A stretch of 64,000 bases of DNA from Kiritimatiellia bacterium (GTDB lineage Bacteria > Verrucomicrobiota > Kiritimatiellia > CAIQIC01 > Lenti-01), in assembly GCA_017527155.1 (NCBI GenBank), contig JAFXQI010000027.1:12628-76627 (forward strand), given 5' to 3'. The position numbers were made by a program, and so were the translations under genes. Of the stretch, positions 2,985 through 57,513 are shown in pieces (positions within the stretch are counted from its first letter, which is position 1; every line of letters begins with the position of its first letter). The notes beneath the pieces are model-generated. The model made no database searches and was not told where the DNA came from. It saw nothing but the letters and a program-made list of their open reading frames with translations.

Positions 2985-4035
2985 CGGTCCAGGGTCGGGG
3001 GATGCCGCCCGTGGTAGGGCGAGCACTCCGTGCGAGCCGCCGGGTCGCTTGCCCCGGCTCGCTCGGAGAGCTCGCCCTACCCTCGCGGGAAACCAACCCC
3101 GGCGGTGTGCTGCCAAGTGGTTTTCATGGGCGTTTGCGTGGTGGAAAAAGGAGAAAATGTCATGTATTTTCCGTAATCTCAAATGATGTTCGGCAGGAAG
3201 GCAAAAAGGGGGCCAGGCGAACCGTTTGGCGCGGCCACCGACGGCGGCGGGGTTAGGTCGGGGGATGTGGTGTTCTCCGCCCGCCCGCGGTGGTGTGGTA
3301 GGGCGAGCACTCCGTGCGAGCCGCCGGACCGCCTGCCCCGGCTCGCTCGGAGAGCTCGCCCTACCCTCGCGGGCAACCAACCCCGGCGGCGTGTTGCCGG
3401 GTGGTTTTCATGGGCGTTTGCGTGGTGGAAAACGGAGATAATGTCATGTCTTTTCCGTAATCTCAAATGATGGTCGGCAGGAAGGCACAAGGAGGGCCAG
3501 GCGAACCGTTCGGCGCGGTCGCCGACGGCGGCGGGGTTAGGTCGGGGGATGCGGTCTTCCCCGCCCGCCCGCGGTGGTGGGGCGAGCACTCCGTGCGAGC
3601 CGCCGGGTCGCTTGCCCCGGCTCGCTCGGAGAGCTCGCCCTACCCTCGCGGGCGACCAACCACGGCGGCGTGTTGCCGGGTGGTTTTCATGGGCGTTTGC
3701 GTTGTGGAAAACGGAGAAAATGTCAGGTCTTTTCCGTAATCTCAAATGATGGTCGGCAGGAAGGCAAAAAGGAGGGCCAGGCGAACCGTTCGGCGCGGTC
3801 GCCGGCGGCGGCGGGGTTAGGTCGGGGGATGCGGTCTTCCCCGCCCGCCCGTGGTGGTGTGGTAGGGCGAGCACTCCGTGCGAGCCGCCGCGCCGCCTGC
3901 CCCGGCTCGCTCGGAGAGCTCGCCCTACCCTAGCGGGCGACCAACTACGGAGGGGTGTTGCAGGGTGGTTTTCATGGGCGGTTGTATGGTGGAAAATGGA
4001 GAAAATGTCATGTATTTTCCGTAATCTCACGTGAT
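2985..4035. repeat. Tandem array of about 3.7 copies of a ~284-bp unit. Each unit carries a ~70-bp imperfect-palindrome hairpin element, a TTTTCCGTAATCTCA motif and an SD + 9-codon micro-ORF (MSCIFRNLK).
   Basis: GTAGGGCGAGCACTCCGTGCGAGCCGCC...CGGCTCGCTCGGAGAGCTCGCCCTACC recurs at ~3013, 3296, 3580 and 3858. AAAGGAGAAAATGTCATGTATTTTCCGTAATCTCAAATGATG recurs in every unit. Confidence 0.85.
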
Positions 4036-4084
4036 GGATCGGCAGGGGGGCACCAGGCGAAAAACGGGACCGCGGGGAGGCGGG

Positions 4085-5011: not shown

Positions 5012-5054
5012 GGGAGTGAAAAGTGAAAAGTGGGAGGAATTCCGCCGGAGGAGA

Positions 5055-6578: not shown

Positions 6579-6740
6579 TTCCCACTGCGGACGCGCAGAA
6601 GCGCGTCCCTCCCCGTGGAGAGCGCAACGGGAGGGTCGCGCTTCCGCGCGACCTTGTGGTGGGAAAACGTCTGGGAAGCTACAGAAAAACTTAAACCGAT
6701 CCAAGACGGGGAGGACGGGGAGGACGGGACGGGGAAAAAG

Positions 6741-6804
6741 TTTTCCAATGGTTGGAAAAAAAGTTTCCAATGGTTGGAAAATTTTTTTCCAATGGTTGGA
6801 AAAC
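6741..6804. repeat. Array of 3 copies of the 19-bp palindrome TTTTCCAATGGTTGGAAAA with ~22-bp period, read as a candidate operator or protein-binding array
   Basis: Direct reading. It is AT-rich in GC-rich DNA. The same palindrome is arrayed at 47.6 kb and 57.4 kb. Confidence 0.7.
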
Positions 6805-13395: not shown

Positions 13396-14144
13396 AGAAG
13401 CGCCGCCTGGACGTGCTGGTCGCCGCGCGCGGCCTCGCCGAGAGCCGCGAAAAGGCCCAGCGGCTCATCCTCGCCGGCGAAGTGCTCGTCGACGACGCGC
13501 CCGCCGGCAAGCCCGGCCACGAATATCCCGAGGACTGCGCCATCCGCGTCCGGCATCCCGAACGCTACGTCGGGCGCGGCGGACTCAAGCTCGACGGCGC
13601 CTTCGAGTCGTTCGCGGGGTTCGACCCGACGGGGGTGGTTTGCGCCGACGTCGGCGCCAGCACCGGCGGCTTCACCGACTGCCTCCTCCAGCACGGCGCG
13701 GCCAAGGTGTACGCCATCGACGTCGGCCACGGCCTGTTGCATCCGCGCATCGCCAACGACCCGCGCGTCGTCGTCATGGATGGCGTCAACGCCCGCAACC
13801 TCCAGGCCGCCGACCTGCCCGAAGCCGTCGATTGCGCCGTCACCGACGTCTCGTTCATCTCCCTCAAACTCATCCTTCCCGCCATCGACCGCATCCTGCG
13901 TCCCGGCGGCCAGGTCGTCGCCCTCATCAAGCCCCAGTTCGAAGCCGGACGCGAAGACGTCGGCCGCGGCGGCGTCGTTCGCGACGAAGCCGTCCGAGCC
14001 CGCGTCGTCGAGGAAATCCGCGCTTTCGGGACGGGAGAGGTCGGCTGGGAGTGGCTTGCCTGCCGCGAATCGCCCATCAAGGGGCCCGCGGGCAACGTGG
14101 AGTTCTTGAGCTGGTGGAGGAAGAAGGAGGGGGGGGCCAACTAG
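13392..14144 (+). CDS. tlyA: TlyA family rRNA (cytidine-2'-O)-methyltransferase
   Basis: S4 domain N-terminus (RLDVLVAARGLAESREKAQRLI) plus FtsJ-like MTase (CADVGASTGGFTDCLLQHGAAKVYAIDVGHG). The conserved tlyA-nadK order is kept. Confidence 0.85.
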   Translation: MKKRRLDVLVAARGLAESREKAQRLILAGEVLVDDAPAGKPGHEYPEDCAIRVRHPERYVGRGGLKLDGAFESFAGFDPTGVVCADVGASTGGFTDCLLQHGAAKVYAIDVGHGLLHPRIANDPRVVVMDGVNARNLQAADLPEAVDCAVTDVSFISLKLILPAIDRILRPGGQVVALIKPQFEAGREDVGRGGVVRDEAVRARVVEEIRAFGTGEVGWEWLACRESPIKGPAGNVEFLSWWRKKEGGAN

Positions 14145-14185
14145 ATATCTAGATATCTAGATATCTAGATTTCTAGGTATCTAGG
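14141..14185. repeat. (CTAGATAT)3-CTAGATTTCTAGGTATCTAGG palindromic repeat overlapping the tlyA TAG stop. It places stops in all six frames.
   Basis: Direct reading. CTAG is otherwise rare in this GC-rich DNA. Related TCTAGATATCTAG copies lie at 42013-42050 and 60024-60040, each at a TAG stop. Confidence 0.7.
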
Positions 14186-18879: not shown

Positions 18880-20826
18880 ATGAATACCCCAGAAAAGAAG
18901 ACCTTCCAGCTGATCGTCATCGGGGCCGGCCATGCGGGCTGCGAGGCGGCGCTGGCGGCGGCGCGGATGGGCGTGGATACGGCGCTGGTGACCATGAAGG
19001 CGGAAAACGCCGCCAAGATGTCGTGCAACCCCTCCATCGGCGGCATCGCGAAGTCCCACATGGTGTTCGAGCTGGACGCCTTGGGCGGGGAGATGGCGAG
19101 GAACACCGACTGCACGGGCATCCAGTTCCGGGTGCTGAACCGCCGCAAGGGGCCCGCCGTGCAGGCCAACCGGGCGCAGTGCGACAAGCCGGCGTATTCC
19201 GCGCGCATGGCGGAGGTGCTGCGGCGGCAGGAGCACCTGGCGGTCGTGGAGGACACCGTGCGGGAAATCCTCGTGGAAAACGGCCGCGCGGCAGGCGTCC
19301 TGGGCATCCGGTCGGGGCGGCTGGAGGCGCGGTGCGTGGTCCTGACGGCGGGGACGTTCCTCAACGGAAAAATCTTCGTCGGCAAGCACGCCGTGGATGC
19401 CGGGCGGCTGGGCGAGCCCGCGGCGCTGGAGCTGAGCGACAAGTTGCGGGATCTGGGGTTCCACGTGGAACGTCTCAAGACCGGCACCCCGCCGCGCCTG
19501 CACAAGGATTCCATCGACTACGCGGCCATGGCCGTGGAGCCAGGCGAGACCGATCCCGTGCCGTTCTTTTCCTGGGAGGGCCGGGAGGGATTGTTCCACG
19601 TGGAACAACCGGGGAATCCATCCGGCGGCGATGACGCCGCGGAACGCGCCGGCGAGTCGATGGTTCCACGTGGAACATCGGGTTCCGCGCTCTTCCCGTG
19701 GGTTCCGGGGAGCGACCCCATTCCCTGCCACCTGACGCACACGAACGCGGGGACGGTCGGCATCATCTCCGCCCACCTCGCGGATTCGGCGCTCTACGGT
19801 GGGCTGATCGACGCCCCGGGCGCGCGGTACTGTCCCTCCATCGAGGACAAGGTGGTGAAGTTTTCCTCCCACACGGACCACCACGTCTTCGTGGAGCCGG
19901 AGGGGCGGTCGGTCTTGGAGGTGTATCCGAACGGGACGTCGAACAGCCTTCCCCTGGAGGTCCAGCTGCGGATGATCCGGTCGATCCGCGGCCTGGAGCG
20001 CGCGGAGTTCCTCGCCCCCGGGTATGCCATCGAGTACGACTACTTCGACCCGACGCAGCTCAAGCCGACGCTGGAGACGAAGCGGGTGGAGGGCCTGTAT
20101 TTCGCCGGACAGGTCAACGGCACGACCGGCTACGAGGAGGCGGCCGCCCAGGGCGTGATGGCCGGCATCAACGCGGCGTTGGCCGTCCTCGGCAAAGGGG
20201 AGCTGGTCTTCGCCCGGCACGAGGCGTACATCGGGGTGATGATCGACGACCTGGTGACGAAGGGGGTCACGGAGCCCTACCGGATGTTCACCTCCCGCGC
20301 GGAGCACCGCCTGCTCCTCCGGCAGGACAACGCGGTGTTCCGCCTGGCCGGTGCCGCGGAGAGGGTGGGGATCGTCCCCGCCGCCCGGTTGCGGACCATC
20401 CGGGAGCGGGAGGGGCAGATCCGCGCCGAGCTCGCCCGGCTGGACCGGGAACGCGCCCCCGACGGGGCGACCCTCGCGCAGTGGCTGCGCCGCCCGGAAA
20501 TCGGATACGATGCGATGCCCGGGCATCGCGGCGACCTGCCGCGGATGGTCCGGGAGCAGGTGGAGTTCGAGACGAAGTACGCGGGCTACATCGAGCGGGA
20601 ACTGCGCAATGTAAAAAAGTCACAACACATTGCGGAACAACAGATTCCAGCCGATTTCGACTACCATTCCATCGCCGCCCTCCGCTACGAGTCCCGGGAA
20701 AAGCTCTCCGCGATCCGCCCCCGCGACCTCGGCCAGGCCTCCCGCGTATCGGGCGTCACCCCCGCCGACATCGCCATCCTCTCGGTATGGCTCAAGCGTC
20801 TCGGTGGAGGGGAACGGACCGAGTAG
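18880..20826 (+). CDS. mnmG: tRNA uridine-5-carboxymethylaminomethyl synthesis enzyme MnmG (GidA). It carries a ~40-codon in-frame insertion with two extra copies of a 14-bp palindrome.
   Basis: [61 protein letters not shown] precedes ATG 18880. Confidence 0.9.
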
Positions 20827-23333: not shown

Positions 23334-26300
23334 TCACGGGAGGCCGAGGGCGGTGGCGAGGTCGTCGAGGAGAGGGGCGGAGGGGTGGTCGGTGTAGACG
23401 GCGGTGCGGTGGATGGCGGCGCCGCGGAGGAAGATGTAGCGGATGCCGCCGAAGTGGTCGCTCCAGTCGTATCCGGGGAGGGTGGCGCGGAGGTGGCGGT
23501 GGAGGACGGCGGAATAGATGAGGTACTGGAGGAAGTAGGCGTGGGAGGCCATCTCGTCGCGCAGGCCGGCGGGCGTGAAGGAGGATTCGCGGCGGCCGAG
23601 GGCGTTGGACTTCCAGTCGACGATGTAGTAGCGGCCGGCGTGGCGGAAGAGGAGGTCGAGGTAGCCCATCAGGAAGCCTTTGGGAATGGGGCGGTCCCAA
23701 TGGTCGAGGGTGTGCAGGAAGTGGCGGTGGTCGCTGTCGGCGGATTCGGCGTCCCAATGGGCGTGGAGGATGTCGCGCAGGACGGCGGTGGAGGGGGCGG
23801 CGGCGCGGGTGGAGAAGTCGAATTCCCATTCGCTGGCGCGGTCGGTCCAGGGGATGTCGCGGAGGCGGAAGGCGGGGGCGCCGTCGGGGGGCGCGAGGGG
23901 GAGGTCGAGGGTGGCGCGGACCATCGCGAGGACGGTATCGATGCGGGCGGCGCGCGCGTCGTCGGTGCCGCGCAGGAGGCCGCCGGCGAGGAGGTGTTTG
24001 GCGACGAGGGGGCGGAGGTCGGCGTCGGTAGCGCGGAAGTCGGCGTCTTCGAAGATGTCGTGCCAGCAGTTGCCGATGGCGGTACCGGGAGGGAAGGCGA
24101 AGATGGGGTGCGTGGAAGGGGGCTCGGCGGTGGGCGGGTCGGCGGCGGGGTCGGCGGCGGACGGGGCGGCGTCGTGGTCGCGGGGGTCGGCGGCGGCGGG
24201 GCCGTCGGCGGCCTCGGCGGCGGGGGTGAGGGAGGAGTAGCTGCCGCGGCCGCGGGGCGGCGGGAGGGAGGGGGGCGCGGGCGGGGGGACGAACGGGGCG
24301 GAAGCCGTGGCGGGGAGAGCGGGCGGGGCGTCCGCGCTCCCGACGAGGGCGGGTCGGACGAGGTGGTGGGCACGGGCGCGGTCGAGTAGGGTGGAGAAGG
24401 CGCGGTTGGGGATCTTGGCGCCGTCGGGGGGAGCAAGGACGATGCAACGGTAGGCGGCGCGGGTGAGGCCGACGTAGAGGATGCGCATGTCCTCGGCGAT
24501 GGATTCGCGGTCTTCGGCGGCGGCGGCGTCCGCGGAGGTGCCGATGCGCAGGGTGCCGGCGGCGTCGTGGTAGATGTGCAACGGGGCCCCGGTGTTGCCT
24601 TTTTCGCCTTGCCAGCGCCAGAAGGCGTCGGGCAGGACGGTGACGGGGAATTCGAGGCCCTTGGCGGCGTGGTGGGTGAGGATCTGGACGGCCGCGGAGT
24701 CGGATTCGAGCCGCAGGCAGGCTTCGTCGCCGGCGTCGGGGGCGGCGCGGCGCAGGTACCAGTCGAGGACGGCCGCGGGCTGGGCGGCGGTGGCCCCGGC
24801 ATGGGCGTGGATGAGTTCGGCCAGGTGCAGGATGTTGACGAGGGCGCGTTCGCCGCCGGACGCCGCGGCGATGCGGGGCCGGAAGGCGAGGTCGGCTTCC
24901 ATGCGGGCGAAGGCGGCCAGGAATCCGCGGTCGTGCCAGAGAAGGGTCCACTCGCGGAAGGCGCGGAGGAAGTCGGTCATGGTCGCGGGGGCGCCGGGGT
25001 CGGGGCGGCGGGCGAGGAAGGGATAGCGACTGCGCCCTGCGGGCGAGTGACAAGTGAAAAGTGAAAAGTGAAAAGTGGGCGGTGCGCCCTGCGGGCGGCA
25101 TGCAGGAGGATTTTCCGGGGGGAGGGCGCCGTCGGGGCGGGCGAGGAGGGAGACCTCGGCGGCGGTGAGGCCGAAGAAGGGGGTGAGGAGGGCGGCGCGG
25201 ACGGTCGCGGCGTGGGAGGGATTGGCGAAGGCGGCGAGGAGCAGGCGGAAGGCTTCGGCTTCGGCGGTACGGAAGACGGAATGCTTTTTGTCGAGGACGA
25301 CGGCGGGGATTCCGAGAGCGCGCAGGCGGGCGGCGATGGCGGGGCCCTTGTCCTTGATGCCGGCGCGCACGAGCACGGCGATGTCGCCGGGCGCGAGCGG
25401 GCGGGCGCCGTCTTCGTCGCACAGCTCGGGCCGGGCGGCCAGGAGGGCGGCGATTTCGGCGGCGGTGGCGTCGGTCGCCGCGTCGTCGTCTGGCAGCGTG
25501 GCGAACTGGATGGCGGGCGCGCCGTCGGCGAGGTCGGCCTTGGCGCTGCCGGCGCGGATGGTTCCGGGGTACGGGATGGCGCCGTCGCCGAAGGTCCAGG
25601 CATCGGGACCCGTGCCGCCGGGATCGCGGAAGAGGTCGTTGACGGCGGCGACGAGGCCGGGCGCGGAGCGGTGGTTCTCGCCGAGGGTGTAGCGGCGGTC
25701 GGGCGGGACGGCGGCGGCGGCGGCGCGGTAGGCGTGGATGTCGCCGCCGCGGAAGGCGTAGATGGACTGCTTGGGGTCGCCGATGAAGTAGACGGGCGGG
25801 GAGCCGGGAGCGTCGAGGAAGGCATCGCGGAAGATGGCGTACTGGACGGGGTCGGTGTCCTGGAACTCGTCGACCAGCACCGCCGCGTATTCCTCGCGCA
25901 GGGCCGCCGCGAAGGCGTCGCGCCGCGGCCCGCGCAGGGCGTCGCGCATCCCCAGCAGGATGTCGTCGAAGTCCGGCCGGCGGCGGTCCGGGCGCTCCGC
26001 GTCCCAGAGCGCCTGGAGGTCGAAGGCCACGCGCAGGGCGCACGCGGCGGGCGTGGTGCCGTCGAGGTCCGGGTCGGGTTGGATGCCGGGACGCGAGATG
26101 GTCTTGAGCGCGGAGAGGAGGTCGCCGAAGGCGAATCCGGGCGCGGCCGCTTCCGCGCCGCCCGGGGCGAGGGCGACGTTGCGGCGCCACCAGTCGCGGG
26201 CGGCGGCGGCGAGCTGGGCCTCGCGCACGGCGTCGGGCGGATCGGCGTCGAAGGCGAGGCCGGACTCGAAGGCGTAGCGGTCGAGGGCGCGACTGCAGAA

Positions 26301-26723
26301 GGCATGGATGGTCGAGATCGCGGCGCGGTCGAATTCCGCCAGCGCGGCCTCCACGGCCTGGCGGGCTCGGCGGAGGGTGTCCACGTCCGGCGGCAGGAGC
26401 GAAACGAGGAGGTTCGCCTGGGCGGTCTCGCGTCCGTCGGGGTCGGCCTGGCCGCGGAAGACGTCCTGGAGGGTGCCGAGCAGGCGGCGGAGGCGGTCGC
26501 GGAGTTCGCGCGTCGCGGCTTCGGTGAAGGTCACGACCAGCAGCCGCTCCACGCCGAGCCCCCGCGCCATGAGGAGGCGGGCGTAGAGGTTGCCGATGTT
26601 CCACGTCTTGCCCGTACCCGCCGAGGCCGCGACGAGATGCACGCCGTCGAGCGGAAAGTCGGGGTCCGCGAAGGCTTGCGCGAAGTCCTGGAAGTCCCGG
26701 GGATGGCGGAGGGGCGGGGTCAT
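23334..26723 (-). CDS. recB: Exodeoxyribonuclease V beta subunit (UvrD-like helicase + C-terminal PD-(D/E)xK nuclease). It carries an in-frame ~44-codon insertion of a (GTGAAAA)3 repeat element.
   Basis: LVAASAGTGKTWNIGNLYARLL, VVTFTEAATRELRDR, LVDEFQDTDPVQYAIF, YIVDWKSN nuclease motif. The repeat lies at 25020-25105 in frame. The ORF is continuous over 1,129 codons. Confidence 0.85.
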   Translation of the reverse strand: MTPPLRHPRDFQDFAQAFADPDFPLDGVHLVAASAGTGKTWNIGNLYARLLMARGLGVERLLVVTFTEAATRELRDRLRRLLGTLQDVFRGQADPDGRETAQANLLVSLLPPDVDTLRRARQAVEAALAEFDRAAISTIHAFCSRALDRYAFESGLAFDADPPDAVREAQLAAAARDWWRRNVALAPGGAEAAAPGFAFGDLLSALKTISRPGIQPDPDLDGTTPAACALRVAFDLQALWDAERPDRRRPDFDDILLGMRDALRGPRRDAFAAALREEYAAVLVDEFQDTDPVQYAIFRDAFLDAPGSPPVYFIGDPKQSIYAFRGGDIHAYRAAAAAVPPDRRYTLGENHRSAPGLVAAVNDLFRDPGGTGPDAWTFGDGAIPYPGTIRAGSAKADLADGAPAIQFATLPDDDAATDATAAEIAALLAARPELCDEDGARPLAPGDIAVLVRAGIKDKGPAIAARLRALGIPAVVLDKKHSVFRTAEAEAFRLLLAAFANPSHAATVRAALLTPFFGLTAAEVSLLARPDGALPPENPPACRPQGAPPTFHFSLFTCHSPAGRSRYPFLARRPDPGAPATMTDFLRAFREWTLLWHDRGFLAAFARMEADLAFRPRIAAASGGERALVNILHLAELIHAHAGATAAQPAAVLDWYLRRAAPDAGDEACLRLESDSAAVQILTHHAAKGLEFPVTVLPDAFWRWQGEKGNTGAPLHIYHDAAGTLRIGTSADAAAAEDRESIAEDMRILYVGLTRAAYRCIVLAPPDGAKIPNRAFSTLLDRARAHHLVRPALVGSADAPPALPATASAPFVPPPAPPSLPPPRGRGSYSSLTPAAEAADGPAAADPRDHDAAPSAADPAADPPTAEPPSTHPIFAFPPGTAIGNCWHDIFEDADFRATDADLRPLVAKHLLAGGLLRGTDDARAARIDTVLAMVRATLDLPLAPPDGAPAFRLRDIPWTDRASEWEFDFSTRAAAPSTAVLRDILHAHWDAESADSDHRHFLHTLDHWDRPIPKGFLMGYLDLLFRHAGRYYIVDWKSNALGRRESSFTPAGLRDEMASHAYFLQYLIYSAVLHRHLRATLPGYDWSDHFGGIRYIFLRGAAIHRTAVYTDHPSAPLLDDLATALGLP

Positions 26724-42012: not shown

Positions 42013-42050
42013 CCCTTCTAGAAATCTAGAGTCTCTAGATATCTAGTTCC
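42013..42050. repeat. TCTAGAAATCTAGAGTCTCTAGATATCTAG palindromic CTAG cluster directly after a TAG stop
   Basis: Direct reading. Same family as 14141-14185 and 60024-60040. Confidence 0.65.
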
Positions 42051-45854: not shown

Positions 45855-45962
45855 TGGTGCGATGGTTTTCCAGCCCCACAGGCAACCATCCAACCCGCGA
45901 ATCATCCACCCATCCACCCATCAAACTATCAAACTATCAAACCATCCAACCATCCAACCATC
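45855..45962. repeat. gatA-gatB intergenic imperfect palindrome/microsatellite built from CCATC(A/C)AAC(T/C) 9-mers. Its left arm overlaps the gatA 3' end.
   Basis: Left arm tggatggtgcgatggtttgatggtgcgatggtt. Right arm catcaaactatcaaactatcaaaccatccaaccatccaaccatc. Confidence 0.6.
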
Positions 45963-47545: not shown

Positions 47546-47595
47546 CCGCCCCCGTTCCGTGCGCCTCCCCTGACGCATACCCGCCCCGGAAAATT

Positions 47596-47729
47596 TTTTC
47601 CAATCATTGGAAAACCGCCGAAAAATTTTTCCAATCATTGGAAAATTCCGGCCATTTTTTCCAACCATTGGAAAAATGTTTTCCAATCATTGGAAAACTG
47701 GCGTACAATTTTTCCGATCATTGGAAAAC
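47596..47729. repeat. Array of 5 copies of the 19-bp palindrome TTTTCCAATCATTGGAAAA with ~25-30 bp period, immediately upstream of a small ORF
   Basis: Direct reading. Same palindrome as at 6741-6804 and 57410-57513. Confidence 0.75.
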
Positions 47730-47740
47730 GGGAAACGGAC

Positions 47741-55452: not shown

Positions 55453-56159
55453 TCGCCCCAAGAAGCTACAAGGAGAGCCCGCCCCCCGTCAACGCCATTT
55501 GCCCCGCTTTCGCCTTGGGGCCAAGTCGACCTCGGAAAGGAGGAATGCCGGAGCGCGGGCGGCCCGCCCGCTTTCCTTTCGCAAATCGACCGCATCCCCT
55601 CACTATCCCCTCCCTTCCGCCCCACTCCCAAGGCCCCATGGTTTTCCATGGTGGTGAGGATGCATGGAATCATGGAGAAAACAAGGGGTTTCCCGTAATT
55701 GCAAATGAGTCTCCCCGGCCTCCGTTTTGTGGTCCGGGCGGCAAGCGGGAGGAAAGAACCGACATGGATGTCTCGAATGCCGCTTCGCGGACACGAATGG
55801 CTTCTACGAGGAAGGGTGGATTGTGTAAGTGAAAGCGGGCGGGCTGGGAGCGCGGGCGTCCCGCCCGCGAAGCTTTTGGAAAGGGGAAAACAAGCGAAAA
55901 GGCCCATGTTTTCCATAATCTCGCATCCAGCGGCGCGGCTGAAAGACCGTACCGCATCTTTTCACTTTTCACTGGTCACTTGTCACTGCGCCCGAAGGGC
56001 GCTACGGCATCCTGCCGCGCCCTTGCGGATGGAGAGCGGGAGGGGAGAAAAAGACAAACAGGACACAGGGGACAAGGTTGCGGGAGGGGAGAGGGAGGGA
56101 TGGGGAAGCGGGCAGGCCGCCCGCGTTCCGATAAAGGGGACTTGAAGGGAAACAGGCCG

Positions 56160-57409: not shown

Positions 57410-57513
57410 TTTTCCAATGATTGGAAAAAATTTTTCCAATGGTTGGAAAAAATGGGACGGATTTTCCAATGGTTGGAAAAAATTTTCGCGCATTTTCCAA
57501 TGATCGGAAAAGT
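57410..57513. repeat. Array of 4 copies of the 19-bp palindrome TTTTCCAAT(G/C)RTYGGAAAA
   Basis: Direct reading. Third array of this family. Confidence 0.75.

Follow-up and report, generated by a model that had tools for sequence, protein, structure and literature searches.

The stretch of DNA analysed here, referred to as the window, comprises 64,000 nucleotides (nt) of a Kiritimatiellia bacterium (assembly GCA_017527155.1, contig JAFXQI010000027.1, positions 12,628 to 76,627 of the forward strand), with a GC content of 68%. Its minus strand carries recB, with recC upstream and recD downstream in the conserved recC-recB-recD order, and recB contains a small repeat element composed of two hairpins and a tandem array of heptamers. 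Here, I show that this element belongs to a dispersed family of small repeats, that it can be read through in one orientation only, and that it varies within the species under strict conservation of the reading frame. The features of the locus are as follows (loci and proteins used for comparison are numbered with L and P, respectively):

23334..26723, minus strand: recB (exodeoxyribonuclease V beta subunit), the gene that harbours the element, with 1129 codons and a stop.
~24980-25130: loop of window recB corresponding to an older extension, residues ~530-542 and 565-580.
25032..25097, plus strand (the family, or AGTGA, strand): 66-nt hairpin-heptamer-hairpin element, nhmmer E = 1.2e-16 against the family profile.
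25031..25045, plus strand: hairpin 1, TGCGCCCTGCGGGCG, with a self-complementary CGCCC/GGGCG stem.
25046..25078, plus strand: heptamer array, AGTGACA at 25046-52, three AGTGAAA at 25053-73, AGTGG at 25074-78.
25079..25097, plus strand: linker GCGG at 25079-82 and hairpin 2, TGCGCCCTGCGGGCG, at 25083-97.

The open reading frame (ORF) of recB runs without interruption on the minus strand, its 1129 codons being counted from the first plausible ATG at 26723, and the encoded protein is identical to MBR3582754.1, from a Kiritimatiellae metagenome-assembled genome. It is identified as RecB by TIGR00609, by the UvrD-helicase and UvrD_C domains of Pfam, by E. coli RecB as the best solved-structure match by sequence (E = 5e-111), and by an AlphaFold model matching the RecB chains in RecBCD structures. 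The TIGR00609 score is 603 bits against a cut-off of 696, a shortfall to which the element may contribute. Outside the loop that houses the element, dN/dS is 0.32-0.41 against orthologs and no different in the element-free comparison; this purifying selection, together with the frame conservation described below, suggests that the gene is functional and that the insert is probably translated.

Hairpins 1 and 2 are exact 15-nt direct repeats of each other and, because the hairpin is palindromic, each is also the inverted repeat of the other. The 14-mer GCGCCCTGCGGGCG occurs exactly twice, once on each side of the array, while GTGAAAAGTGAAAA, with up to two mismatches, is found six times in the window against 0.10 expected, a number reached in 0 of 100 shuffles. 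The array is head-to-tail (period 7, 4.6 copies, 96% matches at 25046-25077 according to Tandem Repeats Finder). An earlier note on this DNA had described an in-frame (GTGAAAA)n repeat of ~130 bp within recB. The in-frame repeat is there as described, the 1129-codon ORF being open and every allele in frame, and heptamers do repeat; the real unit, however, has four AGTGAnn heptamers between two hairpins, and the element proper measures 66 nt (25032-25097). The gene reads the complementary, CACT strand of the element as RPQGAPPTFHFSLFTCHSPAGR (residues ~543-564), within the translated sequence ...PPACRPQGAPPTFHFSLFTCHSPAGRSRYPF... (residues 539-569); the stretch of predicted RecB spanning the element is ...ENPPACRPQGAPPTFHFSLFTCHSPAGR. 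Rfam returned nothing at the gathering threshold in the window, and only chance-level matches (E above 5) around the element.

Two further loci of the window carry sequences of the same kind:

55937..56004, minus strand: second family copy, near full length, intergenic, nhmmer E = 5e-18.
5015..5035, plus strand: fragment AGTGAAA AGTGAAA AGTGGG, 2.5 heptamers, without hairpins.

The second copy, made of GCGCCCTTCGGGCGC, AGTGACA AGTGACC AGTGAAA AGTGAAA, AGATGCGG and the variant hairpin ACGGTCTTTCAGCCG, sits between two minus-strand genes and has an ortholog in metagenome contig L200. The fragment lies in a 42-nt gap between two minus-strand genes and ends 3 nt before the downstream start codon. 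Thus, of the two recurrences of the core proposed earlier (5017-5042 and 55945-55995), the latter holds as a near full-length copy, and the former reduces to a fragment devoid of hairpins.

Scanning metagenome contigs with the pattern GGGCG-N(0,1)-AGTGAMNAGTGAMNAGTGA, which also returned looser matches, yielded at least ~40 copies sharing the hairpin-heptamer-hairpin architecture among the matches listed. The consensus, ~66-67 nt long, reads GCGCCCTGCGGGCGC, followed by AGTGAnn units (three to five per copy, usually four), by AG(A)TGCGG, AGTGGGCGG or AGTTTGCGG, and by the second hairpin, usually TGCGCCCTGCGGGCG; mean column identity is 78% across 26 aligned copies. At its two variable positions the heptamer changes from one allele or copy to another, and units of one array tend to agree. 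Variants of hairpin 2 use alternative self-complementary stems (GCGGCCTTTCGGCCGC, GGCGCGCCTTCGGGCGCGCC, GCGCCCGCTGAGCGGGCG), so that the ability to form a hairpin is conserved rather than one sequence. In the minimum-free-energy fold the usual termini are able to pair with each other, and they are direct and inverted repeats at once because they are palindromic. The family is common in this Kiritimatiellae lineage, where it is mostly intergenic, and a search with its profile recovers the two copies in the window and the recB copies of all carrier orthologs. The recB element is a full-length member of it, sharing 90-91% identity with copies outside recB on other contigs (L196, L186, L209).

The distribution of the element among RecB orthologs was derived from alignments of 22, then 114 homologs (115 proteins with the window RecB). 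The segment between the conserved residues F517 and W596 is shortest in 97 of the 115 proteins (26-31 amino acids, aa) and intermediate in 12 closer relatives (46-56 aa), while a length of 77-78 aa is confined to the window RecB, P0001 (96% identical) and P0002 (80%); P0004 (81% identical) also has the insert. In other words, relatives whose RecB protein is at least 80% identical carry the element in recB, and the nearest sister lineage (65-69%) and ~110 more distant RecB proteins lack it. It is missing in L004 (P0003), whose empty site holds nothing like a heptamer or a hairpin, and in 112 of the 115 aligned proteins. The claim that the extra DNA of recB is a small repeat is therefore borne out, by family membership and by its absence at this site in the sister lineage and in distant RecB. 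That element-free orthologs might have a linker of the same length and of unrelated sequence had also been considered, and this is not so: their linker is 24 codons shorter.

The alignment to E. coli RecB (phmmer) breaks at query residues 529/588 and E. coli residues 634/645, leaving an excess of ~47 residues. The earlier figure of ~44 extra codons stands as far as the total is concerned (~44-47), but only about half of it comes from the element: ~24 residues derive from the element and ~25 from an older loop extension (ALAVGAECPAYPFLARREKPDAPAS in P0003), which predates the element in the wider clade and is found in element-free relatives. Relative to the closest element-free ortholog, the net insertion is 72 nt in the window genome and 63-78 nt across alleles.

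A peculiar feature of the family is that its two strands differ in coding potential. On the AGTGA strand, stop codons occur in all three frames in 23 of 28 canonical copies, because a TGA every 7 nt cycles through the frames; on the complementary strand, no frame is closed in 24 of the 28. The recB copy conforms to this, its plus strand having TGA in all three frames and the strand that recB reads being free of stops. In L214 (4892-4957; orthologs L136 and L141), and likewise in L186, a gene on the AGTGA strand enters hairpin 1 (...EDSALRAQ in L214) and has its stop codon in the first TGA of the array. The L214 gene is a real one, encoding 839 aa with Flg_new repeats and an F5/8 type C domain. 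Other long ORFs across family copies were discarded upon six-frame analysis as off-frame artefacts of GC-rich DNA, with a GC peak at codon position 1. The ORF at L135 1669-2307, which crosses a family copy at its 3' end, was rejected as well, for it lacks any Pfam domain and has a non-coding-looking tail.

The frame is kept in every carrier. Seven carrier loci were available from independent assemblies (ENA, JGI, NCBI, Logan), an eighth assembly, L002, being the same gene as L001; their anchor-to-anchor DNA measures 138, 138, 138, 129, 129, 135 and 144 nt, against 66 nt at the empty site of L004. Set against the empty site, the five length classes are longer by 72, 72, 63, 69 and 78 nt, all multiples of three. 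Family copies of the subtype with the TGGGCGG linker are 67 nt long (L178, L186, L209) and the recB copies 66 nt, and the base that separates hairpin 1 from the first heptamer (column 18) is missing only in the recB copies among the 26 aligned.

Within this constraint the element is highly variable. Strains with ~97% identical recB harbour at least three element alleles, one of which is shared by the window and L250. In the L001 allele, hairpin 1 reads CGCCCGC-CTCCT-GCGGGCG and two heptamers are altered; in the L248/L249 allele, hairpin 1 reads CTGGGC-AAA-GCCCGG, the units are AGTGACG/CGTGACG, the linker is AGTTTGCGG, and the whole is 9 nt shorter. Between the window and L248, 35 of 120 nt around the element differ (29%), compared with 2.8% over the gene and 0-2 differences in most other 60-nt blocks. 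With non-recB copies on unrelated contigs the window copy shares 91% identity, with the recB copy of L248 only 70%, while the recB copy of L003 is 96% identical to the L186 family copy. This pattern points to a turnover that may combine ectopic conversion, slippage and quasi-palindrome template switching, filtered by the reading frame.

At the protein level, the AlphaFold2 model (115 sequences) has a mean predicted local distance difference test score (pLDDT) of 86.7, falling below 50 at residues 545-562; residues 529-567 are modelled as coil between confident helices at 521-528 and 568-572, precisely the region in which the alignment to E. coli RecB is interrupted. The site is one that I take, from the E. 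coli structure, to belong to RecB domain 2B, the helical subdomain of the second helicase lobe. Identity of the insert peptide between window and L001 is 82%, against 97% elsewhere in the protein, and between window and L007 it is 50%, against 84% elsewhere; between alleles, identity of the element peptide goes down to 41-50%.

Taken together, the recB element is probably a tolerated, translated insertion, analogous to the intragenic repetitive extragenic palindromic (REP) sequences and to the Rickettsia palindromic elements (RPEs) discussed below. One family copy would have entered recB in the ancestor of the sub-clade whose RecB proteins are at least 80% identical. Its survival may be accounted for by (i) its lying in the only orientation allowing read-through, the AGTGA strand being closed and its complement open in all three frames, (ii) its whole number of codons, the missing base after hairpin 1 possibly turning a 67-nt subtype into 66 nt, and (iii) its landing in a putative surface loop (E. 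coli RecB 634-645) already variable in length across RecB. The insert would then form a loop of 21-26 residues that is under little constraint, probably disordered and not required for any function. The DNA of the element stays near the family consensus yet differs sharply between strains of one species, for which gene conversion with other copies, and template switching or slippage in hairpins and heptamers, are the likeliest causes, with selection presumably removing any frame-breaking allele.

Several points weigh against this reading. Neither a target-site duplication nor a clean empty-site junction was found, the nearest element-free ortholog being 74% identical in DNA with both junctions remodelled. 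No transposase or mobilising function was identified, the window ORFs not having been screened for REP-associated tyrosine transposases (RAYT). Independent insertions at a hot spot may have taken place instead of one old insertion with later conversion, given that the two carrier clades do not share the same left junction. The putative 1-nt deletion that would have fixed the frame is drawn from 26 aligned copies, and the probable translation of the insert is argued from frame conservation. Lastly, a search of a 5.8-billion-protein database with element peptides (concatenated translations in three frames) gave 7 short domain-less ORFs, and was insensitive in that RecB itself was missed.

The rapid change of the element lends itself to an adaptive explanation, in which it would be retained as a source of rapid RecB diversity, for instance to escape phage inhibitors or to modify contacts with RecC or DNA. 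In its favour, the within-species divergence of 29% in the 120 nt around the element stands against 2.8% gene-wide, at least three alleles exist within ~97% identity, the encoded peptides are radically different (FHFSLFTCHSPAG versus RHASRVTRHSG), and structures of RecBCD in complex with Gam, gp5.9 and Abc2, all three from phages, have been solved. Nothing, however, points to a contact between loop and inhibitor; the variation tracks repeat features of the DNA, namely whole heptamers and hairpin arms, instead of codons, AlphaFold gives the loop no structure, and sister lineages do without the element, all of which leaves such a role quite unlikely. A regulatory role in cis, with hairpins and U-rich heptamers working as attenuator or terminator, or as a site bound by protein on RNA or DNA and modulating RecB or RecD expression, finds some encouragement in one feature of the recB strand:

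25077-25089, minus strand: weak terminator-like site (GGGCGCACCGCCC-ACUUUUCACU), from a promoter/terminator scan, allele-specific.

This is the one terminator-like site on that strand (GGGCGCACCGCCC, then ACTTTTCACT), where shuffles give 0.3 expected, and hairpin potential has been kept or re-created with different stems in three alleles (window; L001, CGCCCGC/GCGGGCG; L248, CTGGGC/GCCCGG). The U-rich tail, on the other hand, occurs only in alleles with AGTGAAA units, and a U-rich tract is confined to the window, L250 and, partly, L001 alleles, the units of L003, L248 and L007 being CACTCGT, CACGCGT or CCCTCGT and the hairpins of L007 having decayed. As Rfam has no match, and template switching at quasi-palindromes can restore hairpins without selection, a cis-acting function is very unlikely.

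Slippage of a 7-nt unit, which is not a multiple of three, could in principle shift recB on and off as in a phase-variable contingency locus, and the units do look homogenised (three CACTTTT in the window, three CACTCGT in L003, three CACGCGT in L248). Yet 8 of 8 alleles are in frame, each with four heptamers and a partial unit, a count subject to ascertainment bias in that intact gene calls were collected, and four units are short for frequent slippage, so that phase variation hardly deserves credence. The same low weight goes to an origin in situ, that is, to heptamers that grew out of recB's own earlier sequence, no dispersed element having inserted. Bacteria show an excess of heptameric simple repeats, with polymerase slippage proposed as the cause (PMC4692102), and the loop was already ~25 aa longer before the element appeared; however, the whole 66 nt, hairpins and linker included, match copies on other contigs at 90-96%, and the empty site of L004 has no heptamer- or hairpin-like sequence. 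To judge from the family match, a local origin is effectively refuted. Although the window is part of a metagenome-assembled genome, where repeats may be put together wrongly, the element occupies the same recB site in eight independent assemblies (ENA, JGI, NCBI, Logan), by which an assembly artefact is refuted; a pseudogene is at odds with the intact ORF, the conserved recC-recB-recD order and a dN/dS of ~0.35, and the chance of either is negligible. An intein or intron was set aside on the size of 66 nt, far too small, and on frame conservation alone. A more far-reaching scheme may be envisaged, in which the unit would be an undescribed class of small repeats homogenised genome-wide by conversion, the AGTGAnn core would act as a three-frame stop or insulator at gene ends, and the recB copy would be continually rewritten into a hypervariable, possibly adaptive surface loop of RecB; I consider it improbable.

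Tolerated in-frame repeats, the reading preferred here, have precedents. The GTAG-/CGTC-tagged REPs are mostly intergenic, often near the 3' ends of genes, and some supply the stop codon of the upstream gene; others lie wholly in ORFs as pairs encoding 20-30 aa, often in repair genes (Di Nocera et al. 2013; PMC3733652). Hosts of intragenic REPs include Xanthomonas recB (X. oryzae PXO_03906, residues 84-126), and recD and uvrA of Opitutus terrae (PMC3733652). REPs and the family of the recB element are alike in being short, GC-rich stem-loops present in many copies, mostly intergenic. Opitutus terrae, too, belongs to the Planctomycetes-Verrucomicrobia-Chlamydiae (PVC) superphylum. The stem-loops of the element fall within the 5-13 bp of REP stems (CGCCC/GGGCG or GCGCCC/GGGCGC, with compensated alternatives in hairpin 2), whereas a conserved REP tag is wanting, GTAG preceding hairpin 1 in 2 of 26 aligned copies and no CGTC tag being present. 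REPs moreover form head-to-head dimers, the present family directly repeated hairpins around a heptamer tandem array, and the two occupy different sites in recB (residues 84-126 in X. oryzae, 543-564 in the window).

RPEs are selfish repeats of palindromic sequence that interrupt unrelated housekeeping genes in frame and are translated with them, supposedly in a way that protein folding tolerates (Ogata et al. 2000, summarised in PMC10969869). The window element is likewise a palindromic repeat in frame in a housekeeping gene; it differs in its size (66 nt versus ~100-150 bp), host (Kiritimatiellae versus Rickettsia only) and peptide (not conserved versus conserved), and RPEs occur in several genes where the present family has one clear intragenic copy found. 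A tandem 7-nt core is common to the family and to heptameric simple sequence repeats and the cyanobacterial short tandemly repeated repetitive (STRR) sequences, heptameric repeats being over-represented in bacterial genomes and little studied (PMC4692102); unlike STRR, the family has a fixed short array of 3-5 units between two conserved hairpins, forming a discrete dispersed unit. MITEs (miniature transposable elements with inverted repeats) and REP doublets (REPINs) resemble it as small, non-coding, multi-copy units with pairable terminal repeats and lineage-variable presence (PMC3116915). Terminal inverted repeats of the MITE kind are present as two identical 15-nt palindromic termini, pairable in the minimum-free-energy fold. 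In contrast to MITEs and REPINs, each terminus is a palindrome in itself and no parent insertion sequence is known; at the remodelled junctions, no target-site duplication could be made out. In-frame small palindromic repeats in coding sequence, recB included, are already published for REPs and RPEs (PMC3733652, PMC10969869); what is new is the architecture of the family and the strong variability within the species, under strict conservation of frame, and the strand asymmetry in stop codons is also of note.

Other observations concern the family at large. Copies are clustered or concatenated head-to-tail (hairpin-heptamers-hairpin-heptamers-hairpin) at L179 3960-7450, L227 41-2803 and L208 3562-3690, and the longer flanks shared among these contigs suggest larger composite repeat units. 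A companion motif, GGCGCGGCAGGATGCCG, adjoins many copies (56005-56021 of the window, minus strand, and 15 fetched loci); it has a small GGCA/TGCC stem with GGA in the loop, reminiscent of CsrA/RsmA binding hairpins, and is not in the recB insert. Scanning genome contigs for AGTGAMNAGTGAMNAGTGAMNAGTG gave at least 120 loci (L008-L127) in many unrelated phyla, with AGTGAnn arrays also in Acidobacteriota, Bacteroidota, Cyanobacteria, Chloroflexota, Planctomycetota and Bacillota among the matches listed. These arrays often are inverted pairs predicted to make long intergenic hairpins (L013, L046, L092, L105, L133), and every such tandem array places TGA in all three frames.

Small repeats of other kinds are unusually abundant in the window as well (Tandem Repeats Finder: 3011-4046, 6735-6803, 47589-47730, 57410-57511, 14141-14184, 42017-42046 and 45883-45962), among them a 284-bp unit in tandem (3.7 copies), the palindrome TTTTCCAATGGTTGGAAAAA in arrays, (CTAGATAT)n, and (CAACCATC) in ten copies. 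In mnmG (~18880-20823, plus strand), three exact copies of the 14-bp perfect palindrome GTTCCACGTGGAAC lie at 19458-19676 (0.01 expected); the last two flank an in-frame insert of ~57 nt with a 30-residue translation, and the Pfam GIDA domain is split into two stretches. This insert is like the recB element in architecture, with identical palindromes around a core, and unrelated to it in sequence.

To sum up, recB of this lineage offers a clean, datable case, outside Proteobacteria and Rickettsia, of a selfish small repeat inside an essential repair protein. It suggests a mechanical rule for survival, namely one strand closed in three frames, the other open, and a length of whole codons. The several in-frame alleles within the species amount to a natural experiment on the turnover of repeat-derived protein segments, and the locus also bears on whether ectopic conversion between dispersed repeats reaches coding sequence. 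Moreover, such elements can fragment gene calls and lower the scores of curated family models.

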